Source of the DNA: a virus
Lineage: Duplodnaviria; Caudoviricetes
IMG/VR virus record: IMGVR_UViG_3300046791_000495
Coordinates: 1 to 52,199 of that record
Strand: one strand, 5' to 3'
DNA: 52,199 bases
This document shows positions 3,079 to 52,199 of the stretch, piece after piece. Below the pieces are notes generated by a model that saw only the letters and a program-made list of their open reading frames with translations, ran no database searches and was not told the DNA's origin. Position numbers and translations under genes: made by a program. The stretch's first letter is position 1. Each line of letters begins with the position of its first letter.

Positions 3079-3091
3079 CTTGGAGCTCCTT

Positions 3092-4244: not shown

Positions 4245-4573
4245 CACGCCACCTTCTGGTTCTTGACCTTGAGGATGCAGGTCCGCTCGTAGACGCGCGT
4301 CGGCGGACCGGAGGCGACCGTGGCCCTGCACGTGACCGGGTAGGAGATCTCGTCCGTCCCCTCCGAGAGCCAGACGCGCACCTTCATGCCGCCCAGCATG
4401 ATCTCCGGAGCGTAGGCGCCGTCGCCGTTCACGAGCTCCGGCGGGTCCTCGCCGTCGACTGGATCGAGCGCGATCTCGACCGAGTCGATGGTGTCGCCGG
4501 CGACGCTGAGCTCCGGCGTGAAGTCGAAGACGTAGTCGAGCCGATCGTTCGGATCCTTCGGGGCCCATGCCAT
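4244..4573 (-). CDS. Phage fibre-tail adaptor-like protein
   Basis: KDPNDRLDYVFDF N-terminal motif common in small tail-associated proteins; coupled both sides. Confidence 0.7.
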   Translation of the reverse strand: MAWAPKDPNDRLDYVFDFTPELSVAGDTIDSVEIALDPVDGEDPPELVNGDGAYAPEIMLGGMKVRVWLSEGTDEISYPVTCRATVASGPPTRVYERTCILKVKNQKVA

Positions 4574-5496
4574 CAGTTCACCTCGACGTTGCGATCAGAG
4601 TACGGCGTGGAAATCTCGCGGTCAACCGCCGGCACCGAGACCTCTCGGACGGCGACGGCGACGACGACGGTTCGTTCCGTGACGGCGACGGCGACCTCTC
4701 GAGCGGCAACCTCGACCAGGACCTCGCGGTCGATCGGGCCGATCAGCACGATCCGGCTGCCCGGCGGCAGTTTCTCGGAGACGAAGCCGCTGGCATAGGC
4801 GTCGAGCTGGGCGTCCAGCGTGCCGGCGAAGACGATAACGCCCTCGCCTCCGGCCGAGGCGTCCAGTTGCCCGCCCAAGGTGCCGAAGAAGCCGACGGCC
4901 ATCACGCCGCCGGCGTAGGCGTCCAACTGGCCGTCAAGCGTGCCGAACAGGGAGACCACCGGGCCGCCGGCGGCGCTCGCGTCCAGTCGCCCATCGAGAG
5001 TGCCCGCCAAGGTCACCAGGGCCCCGCCGGCGGCAGCGGCCTCGAGGACGGCAGCGAGCGTGCCCGACAGGACGACTACGCCTCCACCGCCGGCCTGTGC
5101 GTCCAGTTGGGCCGCCAAGGTCCCGGCCAGCGCCACGAGCGCCGATCCGCCGGCCGTAGCGCCGAGCTCGCCGGCCAACGTGCCGGCCAGCACGTGGAGG
5201 CCACCACCAGCGGCCGCGGCGTCCAGCTGGGCGGCAAGGGTGCCAGCAAGTACGTGGAGCCCACCACCGGCCGCCTGGGCGTTCAGCTGCGCCGCCAAGG
5301 AGCCGGCGAGAGCGTGGAGCCCGCCGCCGGCCGCGGCAGCGTCAAGCTGGCCAGCGAGCGTTCCGGAAAGGGCGTGGAGGCCGCCACCACCAGCGGTTGC
5401 ATCCAGCCGGCCGTCGAGCGTCCCTTCGAGGACGACGGTTGCGCCGCCGCTCAGCCCGGCGTACGGAACCGAGGCATACGGAGCTCCGGCGAACAT
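4573..5496 (-). CDS. Ala/Gly-rich repeat virion protein
   Basis: MFAGAPYAS start, 11 copies of a 20-aa repeat, C-terminal R-E-V-x-V repeats; TGATG coupling. Confidence 0.8.
   Translation of the reverse strand: MFAGAPYASVPYAGLSGGATVVLEGTLDGRLDATAGGGGLHALSGTLAGQLDAAAAGGGLHALAGSLAAQLNAQAAGGGLHVLAGTLAAQLDAAAAGGGLHVLAGTLAGELGATAGGSALVALAGTLAAQLDAQAGGGGVVVLSGTLAAVLEAAAAGGALVTLAGTLDGRLDASAAGGPVVSLFGTLDGQLDAYAGGVMAVGFFGTLGGQLDASAGGEGVIVFAGTLDAQLDAYASGFVSEKLPPGSRIVLIGPIDREVLVEVAAREVAVAVTERTVVVAVAVREVSVPAVDREISTPYSDRNVEVN
4790..5430 (-). repeat. Degenerate 60-bp tandem repeat (~11 units, GTLxxQLDAxAxGGG)
   Basis: Recurrent gtccagctgg/gtccagttgg at 60-nt period and matching peptide repeat. Confidence 0.85.
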
Positions 5497-7652
5497 CAGC
5501 CGATCCTCTCGATGACCGCGAGGCCAGAGCCGCCTTGCGCGGAGGCGTTCTGGTTTGTGACTGGGGCGCTATTGCACAGCCCACCACTTCCAGATCCAAT
5601 CAAAGCAAAAGCCGCGGACATGTCGATGCCTCCTGTCCCCCCGAGGTTCCCGCAATGACCGCCAAAGATCCCGCCGACCGCTCCCGTGATCGTCGTGGGT
5701 CCAGTTATAGATGACGCTGATTGAGTACCCGCACCCACGCATGGAGTTGCACTTCCGGAACCGTTCATCTGGAAGAGCGGGTGCGAGAGTGATTCAAGAC
5801 CCTGTTTCGTGAATTGGCCCGCGCTGTTCCTCAGTTCACCATCTGCGCAGATAGATACTGGATCGTAACCAAGGCGAGAGGTCCCGCTGATCGCGGTCGT
5901 CGCATTCCCTCCGGTACCGGCCCCAGTTCCTATGGCACCCGATGTCGACGAGCCCACGAACCCACCGACCGCCCCGCCGCCCCCGTTCCGGTTTGGGGTT
6001 GCTGCCGCTGCGGAGCCGCCGTTCCCACCAGCGCCCGACGGACTCCCACAAGCTCCGCCGCCACCAGAGCGCATACCGGAAGCCTGGCCCGGTCCTGAGC
6101 CGCCATCTCCCCCCTTGTAGTTGATGTCTCCGCCCCTGCCTGCTCCTGCCAACCCCCCGGACGCTGTCGAGTTGGTGATCGTCGCCGCCCCGCCTGTCCC
6201 CCCGGTTGCGAAGATGCTTATCCCGCCACCGAGGATTGACGTAGTTCCGCCGTCGCCGCCCGTTGCTGCTCCATCGGCGCCAACCGCGACTGTCGCCGAA
6301 GCCCCCCGCGCCCCGATTTTGATATTGAGCACCGTTCGCGCCGTCAGCCACGTCTCCTTCTGAGAGAACCCACCACCGCCGCCGCCGCCCGCTTGTCGAG
6401 TCCCCGCCGCCGCCGCTCCACACCCTCCTGCTCCACCGCCACCGATCACGCTCAGCCGATAGAACCCGTCGTAGGGCACCGTGTACGTCGTGTCGGCGAT
6501 GAAGAACAGCGCCGTCTGGCGGCAGTAGACGACCTTCTTGAACGGGCTCGACTCGCGCGGCTCTGCGACGCGCTCGACGATGGCGATGCCGCGCCCGCTC
6601 GACCCGCCGGTGCAGGTGCCGGTAGTCTTGGTCACCGAGCCGCCACCGCCGCCGCCGATGAGCGGCTGGAGTGCGGTTGCCGTGCCGGAGACGAGAGCGA
6701 AGGCGCCGCCGCCGCCGAGCATCGAGCCTTGGAGTCCAGCGCGAGGATCGTTGACGAACCCGCCGGCGCCGGGGCCGTTGTTCGTGATGACCACGCCCCC
6801 GCCTCCTGCGCTGAAGTAGCGGAGCGGGTCTTGGAACGACTCAAAGCCGAAGGCGAGCGACGATGTGCTGGGCTGAGTCCGAACGTGGCCGTCGAGCGAG
6901 TTCAGAGAGTGCGGCAGGTTGAACGTCGACGAGTCCATCCGGGCGCGTGTGTTCCCGCCGCCGCATCCTGCGCCCGAGCCGTTGTTCGAGTTGACTGCCG
7001 TCGAGACAGCGGGACCGTCGAAGCCGTACACGCTCCCGCCTCCGGTGCCGACGACGAAGCCGCTCGCGGTCACCGCCGCCGAGCCGCCGCTCCCGCCTTG
7101 GTACGTCCCGAAGGAGCGAATCCCGGCGGGGAGTCCGCACGAGCCGCCGCCGGACGCCGCCACGGACGCGCCCGTCTCAGAGCAGTCGCCGCCGTTGCCT
7201 CCCGCAGAGTTCCAGTCGCCGCCCCATGCGACGCCGCCGAGCGCGCCGGTCTGACTGCCGCCGGTCGACGCGGCGCCGCCCTTGCCGCCGCCCGCGAACA
7301 GGTTGATGCGCGGGCCGGTGACGATCGCGTCGCCGCCGTCCGTTCCGTTCCCCCCGACGTTGCTCGCTCCAGTCGAAGAACCCCCAGCGACGGCTGCTGG
7401 GATCGTGATCCGCAGGACGTCGCCCGCGTTGAGGAAGACCGTCTTCTCGCACAGTCCACCACCGCCACCGCCAGAAGCGCAGCCGCCGGTCGTGTCGTTC
7501 CCGGCGAACGCCGCACCGCCGCCGCCCGCTCCGATCGCCGCGACGCGGTACCAACCGGCGTAGGGGACCGTCCAGTTCGTGGTCAGGCGGAAGAACATCG
7601 CGCAGCTTGCGCCGCGCTGGATCGGCGTGACCCGCCGAGGAAAGGCGCCCAT
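5496..7652 (-). CDS. Glycine-rich tail fibre/receptor-binding protein with two tandem modules
   Basis: Two copies of [W/Y]TVPxxGxYRxxxIGxGGGG ... GxAxxER module. Confidence 0.8.
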   Translation of the reverse strand: MGAFPRRVTPIQRGASCAMFFRLTTNWTVPYAGWYRVAAIGAGGGGAAFAGNDTTGGCASGGGGGGLCEKTVFLNAGDVLRITIPAAVAGGSSTGASNVGGNGTDGGDAIVTGPRINLFAGGGKGGAASTGGSQTGALGGVAWGGDWNSAGGNGGDCSETGASVAASGGGSCGLPAGIRSFGTYQGGSGGSAAVTASGFVVGTGGGSVYGFDGPAVSTAVNSNNGSGAGCGGGNTRARMDSSTFNLPHSLNSLDGHVRTQPSTSSLAFGFESFQDPLRYFSAGGGGVVITNNGPGAGGFVNDPRAGLQGSMLGGGGAFALVSGTATALQPLIGGGGGGSVTKTTGTCTGGSSGRGIAIVERVAEPRESSPFKKVVYCRQTALFFIADTTYTVPYDGFYRLSVIGGGGAGGCGAAAAGTRQAGGGGGGGFSQKETWLTARTVLNIKIGARGASATVAVGADGAATGGDGGTTSILGGGISIFATGGTGGAATITNSTASGGLAGAGRGGDINYKGGDGGSGPGQASGMRSGGGGACGSPSGAGGNGGSAAAATPNRNGGGGAVGGFVGSSTSGAIGTGAGTGGNATTAISGTSRLGYDPVSICADGELRNSAGQFTKQGLESLSHPLFQMNGSGSATPCVGAGTQSASSITGPTTITGAVGGIFGGHCGNLGGTGGIDMSAAFALIGSGSGGLCNSAPVTNQNASAQGGSGLAVIERIG

Positions 7653-39882: not shown

Positions 39883-40361
39883 AGCGCCCGCCGATCGACC
39901 GCAGTCTCGTCCAGGTCGAGGCCGAAGTGGAGCGCCATCGGGTCGCGCACATTCTGGCCAAGACCTGGTGGAAGAACCGCCACCGCGGGCGCGTGAAAGC
40001 CGCGGAGCGGGCGCACGTGACGTTCGAGGACGTGGTGCAGATCGGGCTCTGCGCGCTCGAACTGGCAGCGAAGCGGTCGGCGCCGGCGACTCATGGTCAG
40101 GCACCGGCGGACGCGTTCCAGATCACCGAGGTGATGCGCGCCACGCTCGAGCGGGCCTACCCGGACCATTTGTTCACCACGCTCTCGGCCCAGCTCCATA
40201 CGGAAGATGCCGCGGGGATCGTCCGTGGCGGGCGCTATCTGCAGAGCGTGATGGGCAAGCTGGGTCAGTGGCTGATCATCACTGCGCAGTTCACGGTCAA
40301 CCGACGATCGCCCACTCGCGGGCCTTCGCCTGCCAAGCGGTCCAACAGCCGCCGCTCTTGA
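39879..40361 (+). CDS. Hypothetical protein
   Basis: ATGA overlap; 3' end overlaps the convergent SLOG-like gene. Confidence 0.6.
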   Translation: MKRPPIDRSLVQVEAEVERHRVAHILAKTWWKNRHRGRVKAAERAHVTFEDVVQIGLCALELAAKRSAPATHGQAPADAFQITEVMRATLERAYPDHLFTTLSAQLHTEDAAGIVRGGRYLQSVMGKLGQWLIITAQFTVNRRSPTRGPSPAKRSNSRRS

Positions 40362-40728
40362 CGTGCGGTGGATTGCGGCCCTTGCAGTGGTAGCAGCCCT
40401 TGAAGGTCATGCCGTGGTAGTCGGGCGGCAGCTCGCGCACGACGACGACCAGCACGATGTCGGACACGTCGGCGATTTGCAGGTTGCGCTCCTTGAACCC
40501 GCCGGGCCCACCCCACTGGTTGGATCCGGACGGGAAGATGCGGGTGGGGATGCGGAGGTATTCGGCGAGCGCTTCGGCCCAGAGATCGACGCCCCCCATG
40601 GGGGAGCGCCCGGACGAGATGGCGGTGGCGCCGAGCCGGCGGGCGGCCTCGAGCATGGCTTCCTTGGCGGCACGTTCGGTCGCCTTGGTGAACTTTTCGG
40701 CCGCGTGGCCAACGATTCCGAGGATCAT
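40297..40728 (-). CDS. SLOG-superfamily (YspA/DUF2493-like) protein
   Basis: ILGIVGH, ISSG...GGVDLWAE, GFKERNLQIADVSD, SGGCWT; ATG 40728 is 7 nt after TAGACT (leaderless). Confidence 0.7.
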   Translation of the reverse strand: MILGIVGHAAEKFTKATERAAKEAMLEAARRLGATAISSGRSPMGGVDLWAEALAEYLRIPTRIFPSGSNQWGGPGGFKERNLQIADVSDIVLVVVVRELPPDYHGMTFKGCYHCKGRNPPHVKSGGCWTAWQAKAREWAIVG

Positions 40729-40745
40729 GGAGAGGAGTCTAGCGA

Positions 40746-40967
40746 ATGAGCAGGGCAGTGAAGTGTGACGCGTGCGGCGGGATGGCGGAGCCGGAGGCAA
40801 CGATCCAGTTGGCCCTGATCCATACCCCGACCCGGAAGCCGGACGAGAGCGGGTTCTATCCCGAGATGTTCGACGAGTGGCTTGAGGTCGACATCTGCTC
40901 CGCCTGTCTCGACCGCCAGATGCGGGCCGTTCTGACGCAGGCGCTCGATGGCGTGGTGCTGCCATGA
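40746..40967 (+). CDS. Small zinc-ribbon protein
   Basis: KCDACG...DICSAC; GAGGAG RBS. Confidence 0.7.
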   Translation: MSRAVKCDACGGMAEPEATIQLALIHTPTRKPDESGFYPEMFDEWLEVDICSACLDRQMRAVLTQALDGVVLP

Positions 40968-41179
40968 CGGTCTACGAAGTGCAGGCCTGGATCGGTCTGA
41001 GCCTGTTGAACCTCATCGTGCGCTGGCTCGCCAACATCGCGGGCGCCCTGACGGTGCAGGTCCCGAATGGCCTGGAAAATTCGCTGTCGGGGATTTTCAA
41101 GGACGCCGGGAACGACTGGAGGATTCGGTGGGTCACGATCCTCGTGATCATCGGCATCAGCTGGTGGGTGCGTCGGTGA
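40964..41179 (+). CDS. Small two-TM membrane protein
   Basis: ATGA overlap; two hydrophobic segments. Confidence 0.6.
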   Translation: MTVYEVQAWIGLSLLNLIVRWLANIAGALTVQVPNGLENSLSGIFKDAGNDWRIRWVTILVIIGISWWVRR

Positions 41180-41403
41180 GCGCGCCTCTGTGTCTGACCT
41201 GCAAGCACTGCTGCCTCGACTTCGGCAGTCCGGACTACAGCGAGCTGACGCCGGGCGAGTCGGCGTACATCGCTTGCGAGCGCTCGCTCTTCCCTGAGCC
41301 GGAGCGCCACTTCGTCGACCTGATGAGGCTGAGCCAAGGGAGGTTCGTGAAGCTGATCCGGACGGCCGAGACCTGCGAGCAGTACGAGGAGTCGAAGGGA
41401 TGA
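41176..41403 (+). CDS. Cys-rich hypothetical protein
   Basis: GTGA overlap; LCLTCKHC...C...AETCEQY. Confidence 0.6.
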   Translation: MSAPLCLTCKHCCLDFGSPDYSELTPGESAYIACERSLFPEPERHFVDLMRLSQGRFVKLIRTAETCEQYEESKG

Positions 41404-41648
41404 GCGAGCCCCTCTGGAGGCGGTTGCCGGGCAATCCCGGCTGGTTCGAGATCGTCGGCGAAGAGCGGCACGGCCGGTTTTCGGCGCGCCAGTTGCAGGA
41501 GCTCGAGCGGGTGATGCCGCCGTTTCTCGGCTACCGTCGGGTGGCGTTGGTCGACCTCGAGGGCGGTGGGCACGATGGGATCCCGGTGAGGGCCCTGCGG
41601 GAGGACGGCCATTCGGACCGGTTCATGCTGCAGTTGAGGGAGGGCTGA
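41400..41648 (+). CDS. Hypothetical protein
   Basis: ATGA overlap with RBS. Confidence 0.55.
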   Translation: MSEPLWRRLPGNPGWFEIVGEERHGRFSARQLQELERVMPPFLGYRRVALVDLEGGGHDGIPVRALREDGHSDRFMLQLREG

Positions 41649-41950
41649 TGTTCCTGATCGTCGACATGAATCGCCGGCCGGCGGGGGAGTCGGTGGCGGA
41701 CTGGGTGGGGAAGATCCTGCACCAGGCGGCGGAGATTGCCGCGAGCGAGGCGACGCGGGCGGAGGGCCAGCGTGGTGGCGTCCCGGGCGAGTCGCTCTTC
41801 TACGGCGGGGCGACGTTTTTCGCTGCGCCGGAGGTGCCCGGGCAGAATCCGCACGTGGCGGCCTACAAGCGGGGGTATGCGGACGGGATGCGCGAGCTGG
41901 AGGATCTGGTGGCGACGCTGCTCGAGCTGGAGGAGAAGCCGGCGCCATGA
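41648..41950 (+). CDS. Hypothetical protein
   Basis: TGATG coupling, GGAGG RBS; AYKRGYADG motif. Confidence 0.6.
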   Translation: MFLIVDMNRRPAGESVADWVGKILHQAAEIAASEATRAEGQRGGVPGESLFYGGATFFAAPEVPGQNPHVAAYKRGYADGMRELEDLVATLLELEEKPAP

Positions 41951-42207
41951 CGGACCGGGTGGGCGGCAAGATGTGGGCGGAGGCGGCGCTGGGCGGTGGC
42001 TACCGGTACTACGGCGGGGCACCCGGGGGACCGTTTCCGCGGTGCAGGTCCTGCGGGCTATTCATCACCACGATCGACGCATGGATGCGGTTCTTCCTGC
42101 GTGAGCCGTTGTGCGTGGCGTGTTGCGGGTGGTTCTGGCTCGAGACCGGTCGGAAGCGCCACCCAGAGCGCATGGGCCGCGTTCCGCTCGAGCTCAGGTA
42201 CGACTGA
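41947..42207 (+). CDS. Small protein with two CxxC motifs
   Basis: ATGA overlap; CRSC and CVAC. Confidence 0.5.
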   Translation: MTDRVGGKMWAEAALGGGYRYYGGAPGGPFPRCRSCGLFITTIDAWMRFFLREPLCVACCGWFWLETGRKRHPERMGRVPLELRYD

Positions 42208-42883
42208 TGGGGTCGTTTTCCAACCTGGCACGACTCTCGCTACGCGCGCGTGCGCGGAGTACTTCACCTACTACGTAGAGACTATAAGAAGCTTCTAAAG
42301 CACAGGCTTTACGCGACGCGACGTCGGACCCATGTCGAGATCGAATTCGGAGGCGAGTCCTAGGGTATGGATCGAGGTCAGGATTCATCGTTTTTTTCTG
42401 ACTGGGGGGTACGGGGCACCGGCCAGGCCCGCGCGTTTGGGTGGCGTGGGCTCCAGCTGGCGGTGCGCGTGCGCCTAGAAGCCTCGCAGAGCGCCGATCC
42501 GCACCCGCTCCGAGCCTCGCGCTCGCTCCCGCGCTCGAGGTTCCTGCGCGCTCCTGTGCGGTCTCGCGCTCGCAGCTCAAACGTGTTCACTACGCTCCAG
42601 AGCTCGATCCTAAGCGTAGTTCTAGCGTACACAACGCTAACTCGGCGCTCGCCTATTGGTAGGGTATCCGTACCTATCCGTTCTACTCAGTCCGAGCACA
42701 AGAGAGCGAGCTCCCAAGGTTTTGACCGCTCAAAACTCCCTCATTCTAGGTGAGTTAGCCTAGGGTTAGTCCGAATCCGTGATAACTCCTCGTGGTCCAG
42801 ACCGCCGCATTCTGGAGCCGAGAGTGTGCAGGAAAGATCCATGCCAGAGCCCAGAGCCCATATCGGCACCCTAGGACTACCGC

Positions 42884-42912
42884 TTGACACTCCCTAGGAG
42901 ACGTGAAACGAT
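42884..42912 (+). promoter_or_regulatory. Putative early promoter TTGACA-N17-AACGAT with TG extension
   Basis: Perfect -35, 17-nt spacer, weak -10, upstream of the first gene after the non-coding gap. Confidence 0.5.
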
Positions 42913-42984
42913 CCGGCCGTGCGCGAGACCTACTCAGAACGGAATTCTTCCGCGCGAGATAGCGCACAGAACGGAGTAGCAGCC

Positions 42985-43407
42985 GTGAGCAAGAGCAACC
43001 CCGTAGTGGAAGCGATTGAGAGCGCGTTGCAGCGCGCCGAAGCGCTGGCCGTGTCGCTGGCCGCGCGCCCCAAGGGTATCGGCAAGCGCGCCGCAGCCGA
43101 AGCCGACAGTGACGCGCTGGCCACGCTGGTCGCGTTCGGCGAGCGCGTCGCGCCGATCATCGCGGCGTTGACCGAGTACGGTTCGCAGTCCGAGCGCGAA
43201 GCCGTTCTCGGCCACCCGCTGGCCACGTTCGCGCTCGATAGCGCGCCGCAGCCGGTCATCCGCGCGACCATCGCGGCGGCCGTCAACGCGCTGCGCGCGC
43301 ATGGCGTCACCGTCACGCCGCGCGCTGCGGGCGGCGCGGTCATCGCGCCGAAGTCGGACACGCCTGTCGGCGCGCTCCTGTTCAAGCGCGCGAAGGGCGC
43401 GCAGTAG
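42985..43407 (+). CDS. Ala-rich early hypothetical protein
   Basis: GTG 42985 with GGAG RBS (MSKSNPVVE...); atypical codon usage. Confidence 0.65.
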   Translation: MSKSNPVVEAIESALQRAEALAVSLAARPKGIGKRAAAEADSDALATLVAFGERVAPIIAALTEYGSQSEREAVLGHPLATFALDSAPQPVIRATIAAAVNALRAHGVTVTPRAAGGAVIAPKSDTPVGALLFKRAKGAQ

Positions 43408-43506
43408 TCCTAGGACGGGGCGCGCTGCTACCGCAGAGCGCGCCCCGTTCCGTTCCCTGTACGTCGCGGCGCGGCTGCGGCGCAGAGGGAACGAAGGGAG
43501 CCTAGG

Positions 43507-43980
43507 ATGGATCGCAACGAACGAACGAACGCCACCCGCAAGCGCGCAGAGCGCGCAGCGCGCGAACGTGCGGCGCGCGCGCGGCTGCGCAGTCCGGCCG
43601 TGGCCAGCGCGGTTGACCGTGCAGAGCGCGCGCTTGCCGCAGTCTGGTCGCGTCGCGCGGTATCGCTGGCCAACGCCACAGAGCGCGCAGCCGCACTGGA
43701 ATCCGAACTGCACGCCGCGCTGGCCGAACTGGTCGCGCGCAGCACAGAGCGCGCGCAGCGAAGCCTAGCGCGCGCGCACGCTGCGGCCGGTATCGTCGGC
43801 GCTGCGCGCGCGCGGCGTACCAGCGCGCACCGCAACCGCACGCGCTCCGCGCTGCGCGCCGACGTGGCCGCGCTGATTGGGAGTCTGCGGCGCGCGCTCC
43901 GCGCGGAACTGGAACGGGAGCGCGAAGCTATCGAACTGGAAGCCTATCGGGAGCAAGCGCGCCGACTGCGCGAAGCCTAG
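43507..43980 (+). CDS. Arg/Ala-rich helical early protein
   Basis: AAGGGAG RBS, ATG, followed by a hairpin. Confidence 0.6.
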   Translation: MDRNERTNATRKRAERAARERAARARLRSPAVASAVDRAERALAAVWSRRAVSLANATERAAALESELHAALAELVARSTERAQRSLARAHAAAGIVGAARARRTSAHRNRTRSALRADVAALIGSLRRALRAELEREREAIELEAYREQARRLREA

Positions 43981-44151
43981 CGCGCCGAGCCTAGCCTAGC
44001 CGCCCGCGCTGGCCGAGCTGGCCGCGCGGGCGGAGCCCTGTCGACCGACTGGCGTGATTTTTTGGCCAGCGCCTGGACGGATAGCAGCGACCAGCTGGCC
44101 AGTAGCACCCGCCTCGAGCACGGTAGCAGCGCCCACAGCAGCGGCGCTCCC

Positions 44152-44223
44152 AGCTCAAGGAGCTCAAGGAGTTCAAGGAGCGCTCCAGCGGCGCGTAAGC
44201 AGCGCCGGGAGCGTAAGCAGCGC
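44152..44223 (+). repeat. Short direct repeats AG(C/T)TCAAGG x3 and GCGTAAGCAGCGC x2
   Basis: Copies at 44152, 44161, 44170 and at 44193, 44211. Confidence 0.75.
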
Positions 44224-44287
44224 AAGCACCGCGGTCCAGCACCGCACCAACAGCGGCCCACGCGGCCGCAGGAAGGAAGGCAGCACC

Positions 44288-44467
44288 ATGCCACAGTTGA
44301 CGCCCCAGCAGCAGGAGATCGACCAGCGCCGGCGCACGCAGCGCGCTCTCGCCATCGCCCTGGCGGTCGCCGAGCACGAGGAGGCCCGCCGCAAGGGCCG
44401 CGCCTTCACCGTCGGGACCTTCGTCCCGGTCCAGAAGCTCGTGCAGGTCTACAGCATCGCCCACTGA
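44288..44467 (+). CDS. Hypothetical protein (59 aa)
   Basis: ATG with AGGAAGG RBS (MPQLTPQQQE...). Confidence 0.6.
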   Translation: MPQLTPQQQEIDQRRRTQRALAIALAVAEHEEARRKGRAFTVGTFVPVQKLVQVYSIAH

Positions 44468-44469
44468 CC

Positions 44470-44691
44470 GTGAGGAAGCTCACGCAGAGGGAACGCAACC
44501 TGCTGGAGATCGGGCTCAAGGCCCTGGTGGCCAAGAACGGCGAGCGCCTCAAGGAAGCCCTCGCCGCCGGCGACCACAACGACGTCAATCACTACAGGTC
44601 GGCGCTCTACGAGGCCAACAACCTGCTGTCCAGCATCGAGATCGCCCACGAGATCGAACTGCACCCGGCGCCGATCAAGGGTGCCGAGTGA
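44470..44691 (+). CDS. Hypothetical protein
   Basis: GTG after upstream stop (MRKLTQRERNLL...); typical codon bias. Confidence 0.6.
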   Translation: MRKLTQRERNLLEIGLKALVAKNGERLKEALAAGDHNDVNHYRSALYEANNLLSSIEIAHEIELHPAPIKGAE

Positions 44692-44888
44692 TCCGCCTCC
44701 GACGGCTCAAGCAGCAGCGCAACGACTGTGCCCAGTATCCGGCAACCATCTACCTGCTCGAGCGCCTGGCGATCGAGGACCTGGATCGGCTGCCCGCAAG
44801 GAGCGTGATCCTCGTGGCGGGCTTCATCCTCACCATGAAGGCTCTGGCCTGGTTGGGCCTCGAGCTCTACAATCCGGAGCGCGCGTAA
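44688..44888 (+). CDS. Small protein with one hydrophobic segment
   Basis: GTGA overlap. Confidence 0.5.
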   Translation: MIRLRRLKQQRNDCAQYPATIYLLERLAIEDLDRLPARSVILVAGFILTMKALAWLGLELYNPERA

Positions 44889-45133
44889 TGGCCCGGTCGA
44901 GCATGAGCACCGACGAGATCGTGGCAGCCGGCAGTCGCCGGTCCGACCGAGTCTTCAAGGCCCAAGGCTGGCCAAGGACCGTCACGCTCACGCAGCTCGA
45001 GCTGGCCACGACGATTTCGCTAGCGATCTACGACGTGGTCACGACGATCGACGATCGCGCGACCAAGCAGAGGAACGACGATTTCAGGGGCGCGACCCCT
45101 GGAGAGGAGCCGACGAAATGCGAGCACGGATGA
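44888..45133 (+). CDS. Hypothetical protein
   Basis: TAATG overlap (MARSSMSTDEI...). Confidence 0.5.
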   Translation: MARSSMSTDEIVAAGSRRSDRVFKAQGWPRTVTLTQLELATTISLAIYDVVTTIDDRATKQRNDDFRGATPGEEPTKCEHG

Positions 45134-45270
45134 AGCGCGTCAACCGCTCGCCCAAGAACGTGGGCGGCTGGGCCAAGCGACAGCAGGCCAAGCGGCGCGG
45201 TAACCGCGCCTCGAGGAAGAGCCGGCTCAGCGGACTGCGCAGCTGGGGCTTCAACAAGAAGAGCAGGTAG
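45130..45270 (+). CDS. 46-aa Arg/Lys-rich peptide (not in ORF track)
   Basis: ATGA overlap; MKRVNRSPKNVGGWAKRQQAKRRGNRASRKSRLSGLRSWGFNKKSR. Confidence 0.5.
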   Translation: MKRVNRSPKNVGGWAKRQQAKRRGNRASRKSRLSGLRSWGFNKKSR

Positions 45271-45391
45271 CAGGACGGAGCGCTCCTGCGGCGCTCCCTT
45301 GGTGGCTCCAGCAGCGGCGGGAACCACGAAGGAAGGGCCGCAGACAAGCAGCCCGCAACAGGGGACGACGATCCCCAGAGAGGACGTGAGT

Positions 45392-45679
45392 ATGTACCGC
45401 TGTCCAGTCCGATTCACCGAACGAGATCTCGGCGAGATCATCCCCGAAGAGAGCAGCACCGACCAGTTCGCCAAGCACTTGGCCAAGGTGCTGTCCAGCG
45501 AGATCGACAACGTCGACGCCAACCGCGTCGCCAAGGATCTCGAGGAGTGCGAGGCGCCGCAGCTGCTCGACGTCGTGCGCGAGGGGCTCGAGATCATGCG
45601 CAACCACACCGCCGCCAGCTGTCGCCTGATCGTGCAGGGCGGCGGGCTCTACCTGGTCGACCGCTTCGACTGCTGCTGA
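45392..45679 (+). CDS. Hypothetical protein
   Basis: GAGG RBS, MYRCPVRF... Confidence 0.6.
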   Translation: MYRCPVRFTERDLGEIIPEESSTDQFAKHLAKVLSSEIDNVDANRVAKDLEECEAPQLLDVVREGLEIMRNHTAASCRLIVQGGGLYLVDRFDCC

Positions 45680-45681
45680 CC

Positions 45682-45984
45682 ATGGGGAACGAACAGACGA
45701 AGACCAAGGCGACGAAGGTCCGCCGCCTTAAGGACGTCACGATGGTGGCGAGCTTCCACCGCTACAACTGGTGGACGCTCGAGCAGCAGGCGCAGCAGGC
45801 CGACGATCGCGCCAAGGAGTTCAACGATTTCATCCGCGACCACCGATCTCAGGACGACATCCAGCTCGAAGTGGTGCGCGAGTACAGAGACGAGTGCAGC
45901 GTCTGCGGCGAGGAGTGGGAACCGGCCGAGGACGACAAGACTCACGATCGGTACTGCGCCTCCTGTGGCGCGGAGGTCCAGTAG
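45682..45984 (+). CDS. Protein with C-terminal zinc ribbon
   Basis: CSVCG...YCASCG. Confidence 0.65.
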   Translation: MGNEQTKTKATKVRRLKDVTMVASFHRYNWWTLEQQAQQADDRAKEFNDFIRDHRSQDDIQLEVVREYRDECSVCGEEWEPAEDDKTHDRYCASCGAEVQ

Positions 45985-45986
45985 CC

Positions 45987-46208
45987 ATGTACGTCGGCAG
46001 CTACACAAGGATCGAGACCTACCCGCGGAAGCCCTGCAACATCTGCGGGAGGGGCGACGACTACGATTACGGGAGCTCATCGCTCAACGCCTGCCGCGGC
46101 TGCCTCGACTGGGCAGCAGCGACGATTCGCGTGGCGATGAAGCGCGCTCTGCGCAAGGTAGTCCTACTCGCTGGCGGAACGATCGCGTTCGAGGAGAGGA
46201 GCAACTGA
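45987..46208 (+). CDS. Small zinc-binding protein
   Basis: GGAGG RBS; CNICG...CRGC. Confidence 0.55.
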   Translation: MYVGSYTRIETYPRKPCNICGRGDDYDYGSSSLNACRGCLDWAAATIRVAMKRALRKVVLLAGGTIAFEERSN

Positions 46209-46444
46209 TGGCCGACAAGCGGCCGTATGTCAGTACACCCGACATCTTCGTGGCGCTCAGGCAGCACGGAATGTCGGTCAAGGAGATCATGCACATCTGG
46301 AGGGCCGTCGGCGAGAAGCTGAACGCCGACGAGGAACGGCTCAAGGGTTTCGACAACGGCCTCCAGCCGTACAACCGTGACCTGAGGCCGATCTACGAGG
46401 AGGCGGTGGAGCTCGGCCGCGACCTGGTGGAGCGCCTACTGTGA
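46208..46444 (+). CDS. Hypothetical protein
   Basis: TGATG coupling, AGGAG RBS. Confidence 0.6.
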   Translation: MADKRPYVSTPDIFVALRQHGMSVKEIMHIWRAVGEKLNADEERLKGFDNGLQPYNRDLRPIYEEAVELGRDLVERLL

Positions 46445-46680
46445 TCGTGCTCTCGCGCAGGCCGAAGCTGTCGCTTGAGGACAAGACGGCGGTCTTGCTG
46501 CACGCAGTGCTCTACGAGGAATTCATGGGCGGCCGCACGCTGGCCGACGTCATCACGGATCTCGGGCAGCAGATCCACAATCAGGCCAGCGACGACTCGC
46601 TCGTCGAGTGCGGCGATTGCGGCTGCAAGCACCCCTCCTGGAGCACCGCCGATTGCCGCGACGATCGGTTCAGATTTTGA
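46441..46680 (+). CDS. Hypothetical protein with Cys/His motif
   Basis: GTGA overlap; ECGDCGCKHP...DCRDD. Confidence 0.6.
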   Translation: MIVLSRRPKLSLEDKTAVLLHAVLYEEFMGGRTLADVITDLGQQIHNQASDDSLVECGDCGCKHPSWSTADCRDDRFRF

Positions 46681-46682
46681 CC

Positions 46683-47147
46683 GTGAACGCACTCAAGCAG
46701 TTGAGTGTCGAGTGCGATTGCGAGCACTGCCAGAAGCTGTGCTCGACCGAATACTCGATCCCCGGGGTCCCAACGCTACGGGAGGCCGTGGCGTTGATTG
46801 CCGGAGGGCATGCGCGACGATTGGCCACCGACTACTGGTCGCTGAGCGACAGGTCGGTCTGGTACTTGCGGCCGTCGGTCGTTCTAGCGCCGCGCAGGCA
46901 ACTGGACTACTACCGCCAAACGGGGCCGTGCACGTTCTGGGACAAGCGGCGCCACTGCACGATCCATGGCACGCCGATGAAACCACTGGAATGCCGCCTC
47001 GCAGGCTGCGGCGGAAAGTTCAGGGACTCTGGGGTCGTCGAGGGATTCGAGTTCTACAAGTGGAAACAGACGTCGATCATCCGGAGCTGGGACTCCAACA
47101 AGGGGAGGCGACTGGTGAAGATCTGGGAAAGCTGGTACGACCGATGA
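46683..47147 (+). CDS. YkgJ-like cysteine-cluster protein
   Basis: CDCEHCQKLC...PCTFW...CTIHG...KPLECR pattern. Confidence 0.65.
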   Translation: MNALKQLSVECDCEHCQKLCSTEYSIPGVPTLREAVALIAGGHARRLATDYWSLSDRSVWYLRPSVVLAPRRQLDYYRQTGPCTFWDKRRHCTIHGTPMKPLECRLAGCGGKFRDSGVVEGFEFYKWKQTSIIRSWDSNKGRRLVKIWESWYDR

Positions 47148-47377
47148 GCGAGCCGACCAAGTCGCCGGCCGACGATCACGTCAGGAGAGTCAAGGCGCGC
47201 GAGCAGCGCTACAGGAATGCAGCGAAGAGGCTGCACCACGAGGGAGGAGTGCTCGAGGTGGACAGCAGCGCCAAGGTGAGCGTTGCGTTCGGGCTGCACT
47301 TCGTTCCACTCGGCGCCTACGTCCAGTGCTGGGTGTGGGTCGATCGCGAGGAAATCCAGCGCGAGGACCTTGGATGA
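47144..47377 (+). CDS. Hypothetical protein
   Basis: ATGA overlap; LEVD..AKVS...GAYVQCWVWV. Confidence 0.6.
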   Translation: MSEPTKSPADDHVRRVKAREQRYRNAAKRLHHEGGVLEVDSSAKVSVAFGLHFVPLGAYVQCWVWVDREEIQREDLG

Positions 47378-47628
47378 GAATGGACCCGACGTCGACACAC
47401 AAGTTCTACTTCGCGCAGACCACACGCGCGCAGCGGCGGCAGATCTCGTCGCTGTGCGACGAAGCAAGGGCGGCCGGCCAGTATGGGGCCATCGTCGTTC
47501 TCAACAGGGAGACGGGAGTACTGTCGGCTTTCTGGGCCGACACTCGTCGCTGCCTCACGGAGTCGAAGCTCGAGCTGTGCCGGTACCAGACCCTCAGGAT
47601 CATCCATTCGGAGGTGTTCAGCCGATGA
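47374..47628 (+). CDS. Hypothetical protein
   Basis: ATGA overlap, GAGG RBS. Confidence 0.5.
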   Translation: MRMDPTSTHKFYFAQTTRAQRRQISSLCDEARAAGQYGAIVVLNRETGVLSAFWADTRRCLTESKLELCRYQTLRIIHSEVFSR

Positions 47629-47801
47629 ACAAGCAGAAGATCGCCAAGGCGTGGTCGACCGTCGGCAACCAGCCGCGGTGGGCCATCAAGCACATGGTGA
47701 GAGCACTGAGCATCCTCAACTACCTCAACACCCCCGAGGACCAGCGGCGCCTCGAGGCCGGCAAGATCTGCCTCAAGCACCCCAACCCTCGCTACAACTA
47801 G
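47625..47801 (+). CDS. Hypothetical protein (58 aa)
   Basis: ATGA overlap, GGAGG RBS. Confidence 0.6.
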   Translation: MNKQKIAKAWSTVGNQPRWAIKHMVRALSILNYLNTPEDQRRLEAGKICLKHPNPRYN

Positions 47802-47881
47802 GCGTCTCGAGATTGAGCCTACGGGCCACAACTGTGGCCCGTGCGTTGAGTCGAACGACGACTCGGAAAGGAGCACAGCCC

Positions 47882-48076
47882 ATGGAGGGCTACTACAAGA
47901 CCAAGAAGCAGCTGAAGGAGTCGGTCGGCAAGGGGCTCAAGGTGCACGAGACTTCGATGCACGGGCTCGAGTACAAGAGCGACGGCTGGCTGACGATCGA
48001 GGGGCCAGCGCACTCGATGCACACCTGGTACGCGCAGGTGCTGATGAAGGACGACCTGATCGTGAGGGTGAAGTGA
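47882..48076 (+). CDS. Hypothetical protein (64 aa)
   Basis: AAGGAG RBS; YKTKKQLKESVG...ETSMHGLEY...WYAQV. Confidence 0.7.
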   Translation: MEGYYKTKKQLKESVGKGLKVHETSMHGLEYKSDGWLTIEGPAHSMHTWYAQVLMKDDLIVRVK

Positions 48077-48360
48077 CCGACGAGCGGCACCCGATCGCAC
48101 CGACGGAGATCCTCAACGGATCGGGAGTGCTCAACGTCGAGCGCGACTGGCGGACGGCTTCCGATTGCCTGCTGGCCTTCGAGGGCACATTCAGATCGAC
48201 GACTCCGCACCCGCGCGACTACCAGAATGAGAAGGAGTACCGCGACGCCCGCGCAGTATGGTGCGCAGCCGGCGAGGAGCTCGAGAAGTTCAGGGCGCGC
48301 TTCGACGATCTGTCGGGGGCGATCTCGATGTGGGTCGTCCAGAACTGGGAGAGGCGCTGA
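48073..48360 (+). CDS. Hypothetical protein
   Basis: GTGA overlap; LNGSG...PHPRDYQ. Confidence 0.65.
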   Translation: MTDERHPIAPTEILNGSGVLNVERDWRTASDCLLAFEGTFRSTTPHPRDYQNEKEYRDARAVWCAAGEELEKFRARFDDLSGAISMWVVQNWERR

Positions 48361-48794
48361 TGGCCAACTGGATCGGAGCGTTCCGATCGAACTACTTCCG
48401 CGTCAAGGACGAGAAGGAGTTCGACAAGCTCCTCGCGTTCGTCCAGGCGGAAGACTTCCAGCACTGGACGCAGTACGACCCGGCGGACAACAGCAAGATC
48501 CTCCATGCCATCGGTGGCTACGACTCGGTCCCCACGTGGCTCTACGACAACGAGACCGACGAGGAGATCCCCGACAAGGACTTCCTCATCGAACTGGGGC
48601 AGCACCTCGCCGACGACGAAGTGGCGATCATCATGGAGGCGGGCTACGAGAAGCTCCGCTACTGCAGCGGCAGCGCGATCGCGGTGTCGCGCGACGACAC
48701 GGGGGAGACGAAGCTGCTGAGCGTCAACCTCGAGGACATCTACAAGATGGTGAAGGACGAGTGGGAGCTCAAGCCAACGGAGGCGCAGTACTGA
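48360..48794 (+). CDS. Acidic hypothetical protein
   Basis: TGATG coupling; MANW...RSNYFRVKD...MEAGYEKLRY. Confidence 0.75.
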   Translation: MANWIGAFRSNYFRVKDEKEFDKLLAFVQAEDFQHWTQYDPADNSKILHAIGGYDSVPTWLYDNETDEEIPDKDFLIELGQHLADDEVAIIMEAGYEKLRYCSGSAIAVSRDDTGETKLLSVNLEDIYKMVKDEWELKPTEAQY

Positions 48795-49201
48795 TGAAGC
48801 TGCTTACCGCGACGAGCGTGACGAGTCTCATGCTGCAAGCGCTGTACACCGGTGCCGAGATCGGCGATCACGACCATCACCCGCCGAGCGGCGCGGTGAT
48901 GGTCTCGGGTGTGGTCAGGAATTTCGGCTTCCACCCGGAGCGACTCAAGGCGCTCGAGCCGGAAGTAAAGAGCCTGATCCAACAACTGTCGCCGAAGTTT
49001 CTGAAGTCCGGCGGTGGCGGGGCTTCGTTCCTGGAACTGCCGTTCGACGCCAATGGCGAGCAGTGGGGCGAGCAGATGAACGCGGAGGATCTCTTGGCGC
49101 TCGCTGTTGGCCTAGGGCTGGCATCGATGCAGGTGGCTAGGGTGCTCTGGCCATGCCTACCAGGGGGAGTGCCGTACGTTTGCTTCAACGACACGATCTG
49201 A
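48794..49201 (+). CDS. Hypothetical protein
   Basis: TGATG coupling; FGFHPERL...GGGASFL...GEQWGE...LPGGVPY. Confidence 0.7.
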   Translation: MKLLTATSVTSLMLQALYTGAEIGDHDHHPPSGAVMVSGVVRNFGFHPERLKALEPEVKSLIQQLSPKFLKSGGGGASFLELPFDANGEQWGEQMNAEDLLALAVGLGLASMQVARVLWPCLPGGVPYVCFNDTI

Positions 49202-49204
49202 CCT

Positions 49205-49267
49205 CTAGCGAAAGGCCCCGCAAGGGGTCTTGTCGGCGCGTGGCGGCGCCGGCCTGACGAGCAGCCA
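49205..49267 (+). ncRNA. Type II hammerhead ribozyme
   Basis: GC-GAAA, stem III GGCCCC/GGGGUC with GCAA loop, UU, stem I GUCGGCGC/GCGCCGGC, CUGACGA, GC; loop I UGGC can pair with 3' GCCA. Confidence 0.85.
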
Positions 49268-49280
49268 AAGGAGGTTGCAG

Positions 49281-49568
49281 ATGCGGATGCAGGAGAAGAT
49301 CCTCGGAAAGATCGAGGAGATCGCGGTGAGTGCCGGCCACGAGCTGGTCATCAACTTCGACTACGGCAACACCGGCGTCGCGTACGTCCACAGGAAGGAT
49401 TCGTTCGACGTCGTCGTGGGGCTCAACTTCCATTTCCAGCCCCAGTACGCTTCGATCAAGGAGCGGGTCGGCAGCATCGGGCACACCGGCAGGGATTTCA
49501 GCATGACGTACGACAAGCCATCGACGATCAATGCGTTCTTCGTGTGGTTCCGTGGGATGGTCGCGTGA
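49281..49568 (+). CDS. Hypothetical protein downstream of the ribozyme
   Basis: AAGGAGG RBS at 49268-49274, ATG 49281. Confidence 0.7.
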   Translation: MRMQEKILGKIEEIAVSAGHELVINFDYGNTGVAYVHRKDSFDVVVGLNFHFQPQYASIKERVGSIGHTGRDFSMTYDKPSTINAFFVWFRGMVA

Positions 49569-49762
49569 ATCACAAGAGCTGCGGCGGTCCGGTCAACGTC
49601 GTCGAACGGTGCTACCGAGCGAGTCGGTTGATCAGGATTGACGAAGACGGCAGCTATGAGTACGACGACGAGACCGGCCAGACGTTCGACGTCGACGAGA
49701 CGTGGCTGGCCTGCTCGGCGTGCGACAAGCAACTGAGCGACGACGAAGTCGAGGCCGACTGA
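49565..49762 (+). CDS. Small acidic zinc-ribbon protein
   Basis: GTGA overlap; HKSCG...CSAC. Confidence 0.55.
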   Translation: MNHKSCGGPVNVVERCYRASRLIRIDEDGSYEYDDETGQTFDVDETWLACSACDKQLSDDEVEAD

Positions 49763-50028
49763 TGGCGCTCCCCGAGGACCGCTACTACGTCCACGACCTC
49801 GGCCCGCTGCTGGAGCCGCGATGGCTCGGCGACTGCGAGGTCATCGAACGCTGGGAGGTTCGAGACAGGATCGGTCACCTCTCGCTCTACTTTACCAAGA
49901 GGAGCGAGGCGCGCAGGGAGTGCATGCGCCTCAACGTCAACTGGATCGCCGACGTTCTGCGGCTCGCCAAGAAGGTCGGCAACGACGACACCGACAGGGC
50001 GCTGTTCGGCGCCAAGGAGGGGCGATGA
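49762..50028 (+). CDS. Hypothetical protein
   Basis: TGATG coupling. Confidence 0.55.
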   Translation: MALPEDRYYVHDLGPLLEPRWLGDCEVIERWEVRDRIGHLSLYFTKRSEARRECMRLNVNWIADVLRLAKKVGNDDTDRALFGAKEGR

Positions 50029-50369
50029 AGCTCCTGACGAAGGAGATCGAAGAGAAGCTGCGCGCCAACGCGCGCAATCCGCAGTGCGGCGGCGAGGGCT
50101 GGGATCCGAAGCCGGTGGTGAAGTTCTTCAACCCCACAGGGAGCGGGACCTGGCTCATCACCGAGCTGCACGACGATGGCGCGATGTACGGGCTGTGCGA
50201 CGTCGGACAGGGAGAGGTCGAGCGCGGCTACGTCTCACTCGCGGAGCTCGCTGAGTTCAGGGACCGCCGCTTCGGCCTGGGGATCGAGCGCGACCTGTGG
50301 TTCGCCCCGAAGATGACGATCAGTCAGTACGAAGAGGTGGCGCAGCGAGAGAGGAGGATCGTCGCATGA
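50025..50369 (+). CDS. DUF2958 family protein
   Basis: LLT...LRAN...PVVKFFNP.G.GTWLITE...YGLCD.G.G..E.GYVSLAEL...GLGIERDLWF. Confidence 0.85.
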   Translation: MKLLTKEIEEKLRANARNPQCGGEGWDPKPVVKFFNPTGSGTWLITELHDDGAMYGLCDVGQGEVERGYVSLAELAEFRDRRFGLGIERDLWFAPKMTISQYEEVAQRERRIVA

Positions 50370-50689
50370 GTCTCGACGTCTGGCTCAAGATCCAGCCAGT
50401 AGCTGCGGAGGAGGTCTTTAGCGCCAACATCACGCACAACCTCGCCGAAATGGCCAAGGAGGCCGGCGTCTACTGGCCGGTCTGGCACGCGAAGGCGGGC
50501 ACTAGGGCGTGGGAACTGATCCAACCGCTGGAAGGCGCCATTGCGAGGATCGGCAGGGACCAGGAGAGGTTCGCAAAGTACAACGCCACGAACGGGTGGG
50601 GGAAGGTCGAGGATCTGGTTTTTTTCCTCACCAACTACCTCGAGGCGTGCAAGAAGTGGCCGCACGCCGAAGTGGGTGTCTCGCGGTGA
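50366..50689 (+). CDS. Conserved-type phage hypothetical protein
   Basis: MSLDV...ANITHNLAEMAKEAG...NGWG...YLEAC pattern; GAGGAGG RBS. Confidence 0.75.
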   Translation: MSLDVWLKIQPVAAEEVFSANITHNLAEMAKEAGVYWPVWHAKAGTRAWELIQPLEGAIARIGRDQERFAKYNATNGWGKVEDLVFFLTNYLEACKKWPHAEVGVSR

Positions 50690-50901
50690 GGGCTCAGCAC
50701 GTCAGCTGCGGCAGCAAGGTCATCATGGTCCGCACGACGGTGGAGAACTTCGTGATCGTCGGGACCGGCGACGATGGGTTCTGGAAGTTGGACGACAAGA
50801 AGCCGTTCGCCTGCGACATCGAGGAGCGCGCGTGGTGCATGGAGTGCGAACAGCCGATCGACGACCACGAGATCGAAGTGGTGGAGGGCAACGGGGCATG
50901 A
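50686..50901 (+). CDS. Small zinc-ribbon protein
   Basis: GTGA overlap; HVSCGS...WCMEC. Confidence 0.55.
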   Translation: MRAQHVSCGSKVIMVRTTVENFVIVGTGDDGFWKLDDKKPFACDIEERAWCMECEQPIDDHEIEVVEGNGA

Positions 50902-51299
50902 CGAATCCAGCGGTCGTGTGCGGCAACTGCGACTGGGAGGGCAAGGAGACGCAGCTCGGACGAACCCTCACGGAGGTTCATCACCTCTGGGAGCGACTCA
51001 ATCCTGGCAGCGAGGTGCCGGCAGGCGAGTGCGCGCGGTGCGGGTGCTTCGCCTACCTCAAGGAGCCGGCGCCTGGAACCCCAAGAGAGAAGCTGGAGCA
51101 GTTGCGGTCGACGCGCTTCGCCGTCTTCTACGGCAGCAACTACTACCCGCTCGGCGGTGCCGGCGACTTTAAGGCGTCGTTCGCCAGCAGCGAGCTCGCG
51201 CAGGCGTTCGCCGAGGGGTGCATGTTGGGCGGCGGCTGCGACTGGTGGCAGGTGGTCGATCTCGAGACGATGACGATCATCGTGCAGCACGAAGGGTAG
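50898..51299 (+). CDS. Hypothetical protein with N-terminal zinc ribbon
   Basis: CGNCDWEG...PAGECARCG; C-terminal YYPLGG..DF...DWWQVVD. Confidence 0.7.
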   Translation: MTNPAVVCGNCDWEGKETQLGRTLTEVHHLWERLNPGSEVPAGECARCGCFAYLKEPAPGTPREKLEQLRSTRFAVFYGSNYYPLGGAGDFKASFASSELAQAFAEGCMLGGGCDWWQVVDLETMTIIVQHEG

Positions 51300-51382
51300 C
51301 CAGCTGGGCGCTGGCCCGTCCGCATCGGCAGCCGCTGATGCGACACGGCGAGCGCCAATCTCGGCGCCAAAGAGAGGTGAAG

Positions 51383-51679
51383 ATGCCGAACGAATTCGCA
51401 GGACACACGCCGGGACCGTGGACGATGCAGAGAGGAATCGTCGATCTGCACGTCTACTGCGGGCTGGATACGACGCTCGACGTTCGCGGCATGAACGATC
51501 AGCAGTGGGAGTTCAGTCCCAAGACACTAGTCAACACCGAACTTGCTGCCGCCGCTCCTCGTCTCCTCCGCGAGCGCGACGAGCTGCGCGAGGCGCTGGA
51601 GGAAGTTGTTTCTGGAGACGGGACCACGACGGAGCAACTTGCGAGATTCCGCGCCCTCCTCGCCCGCGTGAAGCCATGA
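51383..51679 (+). CDS. Hypothetical protein (HTPGPW...AAAPxLL type)
   Basis: GAGG RBS; motif common in small phage early proteins. Confidence 0.7.
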   Translation: MPNEFAGHTPGPWTMQRGIVDLHVYCGLDTTLDVRGMNDQQWEFSPKTLVNTELAAAAPRLLRERDELREALEEVVSGDGTTTEQLARFRALLARVKP

Positions 51680-51903
51680 GCAAGAACGAGACTGAGATCA
51701 AGGCGACGATCCTTCGCGCCCTGAGCGACCACAAGGGCGACGATCTTTATCGGGCCAAGCAGGCCTTCCTGTACTGCACTCGGAAGCAGATGGGTGAGCA
51801 GTACGGCGAGAGCGGCAAGACACGGCAACAGATCGTCGATGAGTACGCCGAGCATGTGGAGCGCGTGCGCCGGGCCGAGGACTGGGTGAGGTCGCAGCTG
51901 TGA
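51676..51903 (+). CDS. Hypothetical protein
   Basis: ATGA overlap; GDDLYRAKQAF...QYGESGKTRQQI. Confidence 0.65.
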   Translation: MSKNETEIKATILRALSDHKGDDLYRAKQAFLYCTRKQMGEQYGESGKTRQQIVDEYAEHVERVRRAEDWVRSQL

Positions 51904-52112
51904 GCGGCGAGACCCACAGGCACCTGCGGCACGTCGTGCGCGGGATGCCGATCGCCAAGAGGGTCAAGATCGAGATCGCGCTGCGCCAATTGCATGTCGA
52001 GATCCTTGAGGCGGCCATCAACCAGGGCAACGAGTCGTTCAAGGCGGGGCTGAAGGCGGAGGCCAACAGGATCAGCGTTCTGTTCGGGATTATGCGGGAC
52101 CCGGACGAATAG
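51900..52112 (+). CDS. Hypothetical protein
   Basis: GTGA overlap with GAGG RBS. Confidence 0.55.
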   Translation: MSGETHRHLRHVVRGMPIAKRVKIEIALRQLHVEILEAAINQGNESFKAGLKAEANRISVLFGIMRDPDE

Positions 52113-52167
52113 AAGGGCTCCCGCCCCAGCGACCTCTTGACAGAGGCGTGGGGCGGGAGTAACTTCT
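52111..52167 (+). other. Long intergenic hairpin (processing site or terminator)
   Basis: GCTCCCGCCCCA (52117-52128) / TGGGGCGGGAGT (52149-52160) with inner CCTCT/AGAGG; no strong U-tract. Confidence 0.55.
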
Positions 52168-52199
52168 CGGCTGTCTAGGTCGAGGGCAGCAAGGGTAGC

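Follow-up and report, generated by a model that had tools for sequence, protein, structure and literature searches.

In an uncultivated soil phage, a gap of 79 nt separating two small genes raises the question of whether the RNA transcribed from it cuts itself, and whether such a cut is linked to the translation of the gene that follows. The locus belongs to an IMG/VR virus record of a tailed phage, 52,199 bp in length, classed as linear, about 60% complete and with about 65% G+C; this whole stretch of DNA is referred to below as the window. Genes for the terminase, portal, major head, minor tail and tape-measure proteins lie on the - strand of the window, and small + strand ORFs with many -1/-4 stop/start overlaps extend from about 38.3 kb to the window end, the gene map of this small-ORF block being based on our own GC3-periodicity calls. 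The gap separates the stop TGA (49199-201) of one such gene from the ATG (49281) of the next. In the first-pass annotation it had been described as a type II hammerhead ribozyme of an "early operon", a label that the gene layout makes plausible; no promoter-like site was found for it. Type II hammerheads with a 2-bp stem II and a pseudoknot between loop I and the 3′ tail were described between phage genes in 2011, and hammerheads of such design are reported to cleave in vitro (PMC3088659).

Two further observations concern the surrounding genes. A DUF2958 protein (PF11171, E 7e-33) is encoded at window positions 50025-50369 (+); its gene belongs to the small-ORF run around the hammerhead and lies three genes 3′ of the ribozyme. 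The 95-aa downstream protein (49281-49568) matches repeats inside giant proteins (P0012, P0014 and P0017), with 15, 7 and 5 such stretches in proteins of 4022, 2354 and 2715 aa, and it also matches small stand-alone relatives.

Table 1 Features of the hammerhead locus and its flanking genes (window coordinates)
Feature	Position	Strand	Remarks
Upstream gene, 135 aa, function unknown, phrog_26039	48794..49201	+	Stop TGA 49199-49201, 6 nt before stem II
Type II hammerhead ribozyme, full RF02276 match	49206..49270	+	RF02276 61 bits; R1 66.4 bits
Stem II 5′ strand G11.2 C11.1, 2-bp stem with G49261-C49262 (10.1, 10.2)	49208..49209	+	G in 149/150, C in 148/150 aligned members
Core G12 A13 A14	49210..49212	+	
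Stem III hairpin: A15.1-U16.1 (49213/49230) and GGCCCC 49214-19/GGGGUC 49224-29, GCAA loop 49220-23	49213..49230	+	
Predicted cleavage site between U49231 (position 17) and G49232 (1.1); triplet C49229-U49230-U49231	49231..49232	+	RF02276 alignment
Stem I hairpin GUCGGCGC 49232-39/GCGCCGGC 49246-53, loop GUGGCG 49240-45	49232..49253	+	
Core C3 U4 G5 A6 C7 G8 A9 (CUGACGA)	49254..49260	+	Position 7: C in 25/150, U in 122/150
Stem II 3′ strand G10.1 C10.2	49261..49262	+	
Predicted pseudoknot 3′ strand GCCA, pairs with loop I UGGC 49241-44	49264..49267	+	
Shine-Dalgarno AGGAGG, 6-nt spacer to ATG 49281	49269..49274	+	
Alternative hairpin GCAGCC 49261-66/GGUUGC 49273-78, loop AAAGGA, pairs Shine-Dalgarno G49273-G49274	49261..49278	+	-8.0 kcal/mol
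Downstream gene, 95 aa, function unknown, weak phrog_29014, only distant small homologues	49281..49568	+	

The covariance-model search that the first-pass annotation had proposed as a check gave a full-length match to Rfam Hammerhead_II RF02276 (gathering score 37, E 3e-10, model positions 1-66 of 66), which bears out the first reading: the hammerhead is of type II, its stem II is short and its loop I can form a pseudoknot. It is the sole Rfam match at gathering score within the window. Our own covariance model R1, described below, places the element in the lower third of its match list, the next-best site of the window reaching 15.2 bits (E 0.11, filters off). No other ribozyme and no weaker hammerhead was obtained in window positions 1-40000 at E up to 1, and positions 40000-52199 gave chance-level matches only (blv_FSE, E 4.8; Glutamine-II, E 0.73). 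The latter, a riboswitch match at 48433-48487 (+) that falls within coding sequence, stays below threshold (18.6 bits, gathering score 33) and is most likely due to chance.

A sequence check located every hammerhead element listed by the first-pass annotation where it had been placed. Of the two uridines left outside the stems there, U49231 is unpaired, but U49230 corresponds to U16.1 and pairs with A49213 (A15.1) in the Rfam alignment. The acceptance criteria laid down in PMC3088659 ask for a consensus core with N7 and H17 and for no mispair at 10.1-11.1, 1.1-2.1 and 15.1-16.1. The window element carries C3 U4 G5 A6 N7 G8 A9, G12 A13 A14, A15.1, U16.1 and H17 (U49231), and the core-adjacent pairs G49261-C49209 (10.1-11.1), G49232-C49253 (1.1-2.1) and A49213-U49230 (15.1-16.1) are intact; stem II is formed by G49208-C49262 and C49209-G49261. 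Stems I and III are loop-closed, both being recovered as hairpins by free folding, and stem II is open to the flanks, which is the type II topology. The published design further includes a pseudoknot of at least 4 bp between loop I and the 3′ tail, and the complementarity of UGGC to GCCA predicts one of that length. Alternative registers with a GUC triplet (G49227-U49228-C49229 or G49232-U49233-C49234) were rejected by eye, as they break A15.1-U16.1 or leave extra core bases. Stem III was also considered as an intrinsic terminator and rejected; no + strand terminator-like site was reported in 46000-52199. Judged by sequence, the observation of a hammerhead in the window is confirmed, and the element is a canonical RF02276 member, an ordinary new example of a well-known family.

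For comparison a family sample was collected with a pattern for this hammerhead design (GCGAAA, 40-56 nt, CUGANGAGCAGCC), which matched at least 120 viral-contig stretches. The pattern matches listed numbered at least 150 including the window, 148 of them distinct and 145 distinct with enough flank. A crude stem III filter applied to these 145 passed 111 and rejected 34; most of the rejected ones look like real hammerheads with one mismatch, and L003, L107 and L113 do not. From the 111 that passed, 70 were drawn at random and aligned together with the window (71 sequences). Core and tail are fixed by the search pattern, so only the stems and two free pseudoknot columns of this alignment are informative. 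Stems I and III and the pseudoknot were paired in 98.5% of cells against 75.3% in shuffles, with changes on both sides in 284 cells against 85. Each of the 8 stem I pairs and 6 of the 7 stem III pairs showed such two-sided changes, the pseudoknot helix was paired at 98.2%, and the window row fits the common structure of stems and pseudoknot. The model R1 was built from this alignment and searched against the window and L002-L100, leaving aside L101-L121; it found 156 hammerheads at E up to 0.001, of which 150 were aligned. The viral contig L042 holds 13 R1 hammerhead matches within about 4 kb (approximately 2817-6749), 11 of them among the 150 aligned, and each of the seven that also match the pattern is preceded by a stop codon and followed by a small gene's RBS. 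This density is striking; hammerhead clusters as such are already known (PMC3088659).

The position of the element was examined across 145 of the 150 aligned hammerheads that are distinct, have at least 50 nt of flank and derive from the fixed-tail pattern, the count describing that subclass only. Among these matches listed, the stop of a long upstream frame ends between -3 and +5 nt from stem II in 112/145, the best start codon follows the last C of the pseudoknot strand by 4-20 nt in 105/145, and a Shine-Dalgarno of at least 4 bases begins 0-6 nt after that C in 70/145; a cruder count on the pattern matches listed put the stop at -1 to +2 nt from stem II in 96 of 148. In the window the stop stands 6 nt before stem II, and beyond the final C of the pseudoknot strand AGGAGG follows at 2 nt and ATG at 14 nt. 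The order of stop, hammerhead, Shine-Dalgarno and start is thus the rule in the sampled phage hammerheads, and placement just 5′ of the RBS, which had been singled out in the first description of the locus, is real but typical of the family rather than special.

In 8 of the 145 among the matches listed the start codon comes only 4 nt after the pseudoknot strand, and in L016, L018, L036, L045, L051, L061 and L071 this arrangement (AGCC-ACCC-ATG) has no Shine-Dalgarno. The outermost consensus of RF02276 (5′ A/U-A, 3′ A/G-A-G/A-G) falls in columns at window 49206-07 and 49267-70, and its source seems to be the adjoining stop codon and Shine-Dalgarno, not the structure of the ribozyme. The main text of PMC3088659 has 0 occurrences of either "Shine-Dalgarno" or "ribosome binding", and the packing of stop, hammerhead, Shine-Dalgarno and start was not addressed in the titles or abstracts of the further literature retrieved. 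Its measurement across 145 phage hammerheads makes a small general point. With stop and stem II abutting at one end and Shine-Dalgarno and pseudoknot at the other throughout the family, ribosomes at both ends could gate hammerhead folding in phage operons; if they do, self-cleavage would read out translation.

For the window copy a structural route to such gating had been suggested, namely a pairing of GCAGCC with GGUUGC around the Shine-Dalgarno, and this alternative hairpin does appear in the minimum-free-energy folds of both 49195-49300 and 49232-49300. It uses the stem II 3′ strand and three of the four pseudoknot bases, and therefore excludes catalysis. Stems I and III together with the hairpin reach -39.1 kcal/mol versus -29.3 for the nested catalytic fold, energies that omit the pseudoknot and tertiary contacts; as a bare duplex the pseudoknot is worth -4.2 to -6.4 kcal/mol. 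The hairpin might make the element a gated ribozyme, in which it would compete with stem II and the pseudoknot, half-mask the Shine-Dalgarno and couple cleavage to the translation of 49281..49568, for example if ribosome traffic opens it and lets the ribozyme fold. The mutual exclusion with catalysis and the involvement of two Shine-Dalgarno bases agree with such a role, as does the strength of the pairing between tail and downstream sequence, which is the highest of 147 family instances among the matches listed (0.999, the next being 0.85) and is equalled with only 166 of the 4096 possible 6-nt spacers. However, the hairpin is not a family feature, the mean pairing of these 147 among the matches listed being 0.481 versus 0.482 in shuffles, and no complement for such a hairpin exists downstream of the two other hammerheads with the same cleavage triplet, L203 and L234 (see below). 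Shuffles of the window's own downstream 35 nt reached such pairing in 1.2% of cases (2.9% at 0.9 or more), which makes one instance among about 150 what chance predicts. The masking is also partial, with four of the six Shine-Dalgarno bases in the loop at an unpaired probability of 1.0, and no relatives were found that show covariation of the hairpin. A gating structure would be expected to be conserved among relatives as well as exclusive with the catalytic fold, and of these two, exclusivity was found, in the window copy. The alternative hairpin is real but within chance. Coupling of cleavage to translation through it is possible, and we regard a gated ribozyme as unlikely; what stands of the proposed RBS-masking is the hairpin in the window itself, while the family offers no enrichment for it.

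The cut had been predicted after U49231, and the RF02276 alignment agrees with this position. Cleavage triplets in the 150 aligned members, among the matches listed, were GUC in 142, AUC in 4, GUA in 2, GUU in 1 and CUU in 1, the last being the window, whose G15.2-C16.2 pair is likewise unique among the 150. In kinetic work of 1995, triplets ending in U reportedly cleaved more slowly in minimal hammerheads; a triplet ranking for CUU was not found in the literature retrieved, where CUU occurs mainly as the name of a loop or target. CUU-type members may already be included in Dataset S1 of PMC3088659. A second pattern with G after GAAA and with CTT was run on viral and metagenome contigs. Viral contigs yielded the CUU-type copies L203 and L204 (65.6 bits), which are identical over 3 kb and represent one phage, and metagenome contigs yielded L208, with the sequence of L203, and L234 (65.9 bits). 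L205-L207 scored about 25 bits and have UC rather than UU at positions 16.1/17, L230 and L246 scored 27-28 bits, and 37 of the 41 metagenome stretches from this pattern gave no R1 match at E up to 0.001. Compensatory changes in both stems distinguish the three independent CUU-type lineages (window, L203 and L234), which makes CUU a rare but maintained variant and not an obvious defect.

The rarity of the triplet also bears on whether the window copy is a decaying or neutral descendant of a hammerhead cassette which, with its CUU site and a misfolding trap, performs no useful cleavage and persists as intergenic spacer. A competing fold predicted to be more stable fits this picture, as does the fact that it is the only hammerhead in 52 kb, while some phage contigs such as L042 carry many. 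Decay would, however, be expected to leave defects in core or stems, whereas all catalytic residues of the window copy are consensus and no stem pair is broken; moreover the CUU-type copies of the two other lineages keep perfect stems, and a U at position 17 is acceptable under the published criteria (PMC3088659). We find a decayed copy very improbable. Together, the CUU triplet and the competing hairpin suggest that cleavage of the window copy may be slower than in typical GUC members. That it is a kinetically trapped slow variant, with its stem II/pseudoknot strand freed only when ribosomes on 49281..49568 open the hairpin, appears quite unlikely to us.

Conservation at the locus was sought through the flanking genes. 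Single-protein scans of viral contigs with the flanking proteins found no close relatives. In phage records, tblastn detected nothing related to the downstream protein and, for the upstream protein, only relatives of at most 40.5% identity, and blastn of 48200-50400 returned one unrelated 208-nt match only; a word-index search with the downstream protein retrieved only the window's own protein. None of 80 viral loci encoding relatives of the upstream protein has a hammerhead within the 2-kb flanks, and neither has the single viral locus with a relative of the downstream protein, which was found with a 4-sequence alignment, a 16-sequence alignment of distant relatives being too divergent. The window hammerhead is not tied to its neighbour genes, and its absence at these 80 + 1 loci agrees with the statement in PMC3088659 that the genes flanking phage hammerheads are not constant. 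DNA of 48300-50300 also occurs in two soil/rhizosphere metagenome runs that other studies produced (X2 and X3), each with 41% of the sampled words; their well-aligning contigs show 0 differences to the window and so offer no variants for comparison, and one X2 contig spans 49200-49583. The presence of identical DNA in X2 and X3 means that the phage is not confined to one sample. No RNA run was among the sequencing runs matching window 48300-50300.

Taking the evidence together, we hold it highly probable that 49206-49270 (+) is a genuine type II self-cleaving hammerhead that splits the mRNA between two same-strand phage genes. Going by primary and predicted secondary structure, it belongs to the family and has all the features required of a member; from these we infer cleavage in vivo and an effect on expression. 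Counted against this explanation are the nearest-neighbour energies, which favour the alternative hairpin, the rarity of CUU, and the searches that returned neither an RNA run nor a close relative of the phage. In a polycistronic transcript stems III and I would fold as hairpins, and the core would be closed by the 2-bp stem II (49208-9/49261-2) and the 4-bp pseudoknot (49241-44/49264-67). The 2′-OH of U49231 would then attack its own 3′ phosphate, cutting the chain between U49231 and G49232. The ribozyme lies on the same strand as both flanking genes in a run of overlapping small ORFs, and cleavage would therefore split a polycistronic mRNA, as had been predicted at the outset. The upstream product would keep its stop codon and end in the stem III hairpin with a 2′,3′-cyclic phosphate; the downstream product would begin with a 5′-OH at the base of the stem I hairpin and pseudoknot, followed directly by AGGAGG and ATG 49281. 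Structured 5′-OH ends resist 5′-end-dependent decay. Each half of the operon, bearing a structured protective end, would likely acquire a stability and translation of its own. That the cleaved products differ in stability or translation efficiency is a hypothesis already in print (PMC3088659; PMC6765202).

Taken alone, the window hammerhead is one more copy of a large family and matters little. The type II family counts thousands of members. The biological role of bacterial and phage hammerheads has been called largely elusive in a 2019 review (PMC6765202), and for that role the window copy is a clean natural test case. It is also a test case for how far a rare CUU site and an RBS-proximal competing hairpin slow a natural type II ribozyme.

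The window element shares with the RF02276 family described in PMC3088659 the closed stems I and III, the open 2-bp stem II, all core residues, the 4-bp pseudoknot of loop I with the tail just 3′ of stem II, and a place between inconstant phage genes. It departs from the family in its cleavage triplet, CUU where GUC is usual, in its G15.2-C16.2 pair, where C-G is usual, in occurring as one copy and not in a cluster, and in a strong competing hairpin with the Shine-Dalgarno spacer. In haloviruses HF1/HF2 the HHphage hammerhead reportedly heads an early polycistronic transcript, 13 nt ahead of the start codon for a helicase, and a mapped 5′ end falls within three nt of the cleavage site (PMC3088659). 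Like the window element it is a phage hammerhead placed a few nt before a start codon, in what is presumed to be an early region; as described there, however, it is a structural variant of archaeal viruses that needs high Mg2+, whereas the window holds a canonical bacterial type II form in an intergenic gap. In Desulfovibrio vulgaris, cyPhyRNA-seq is reported to have detected in vivo cleavage by three type II hammerheads that lie near phage-like genes (PMC8782182). They share with the window element the ribozyme class and a phage-related bacterial context, and they show that hammerheads of this class are active in cells. A self-cleaving ribozyme insulator placed just upstream of an RBS removes the upstream RNA context and leaves a 5′-OH and a structured 5′ end. 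RiboJ is a synthetic insulator of this kind, engineered from a satellite-RNA hammerhead with an added hairpin. The window element is like RiboJ in its placement upstream of an RBS, but it occurs in nature, is a type II ribozyme and has a putative effect on expression.
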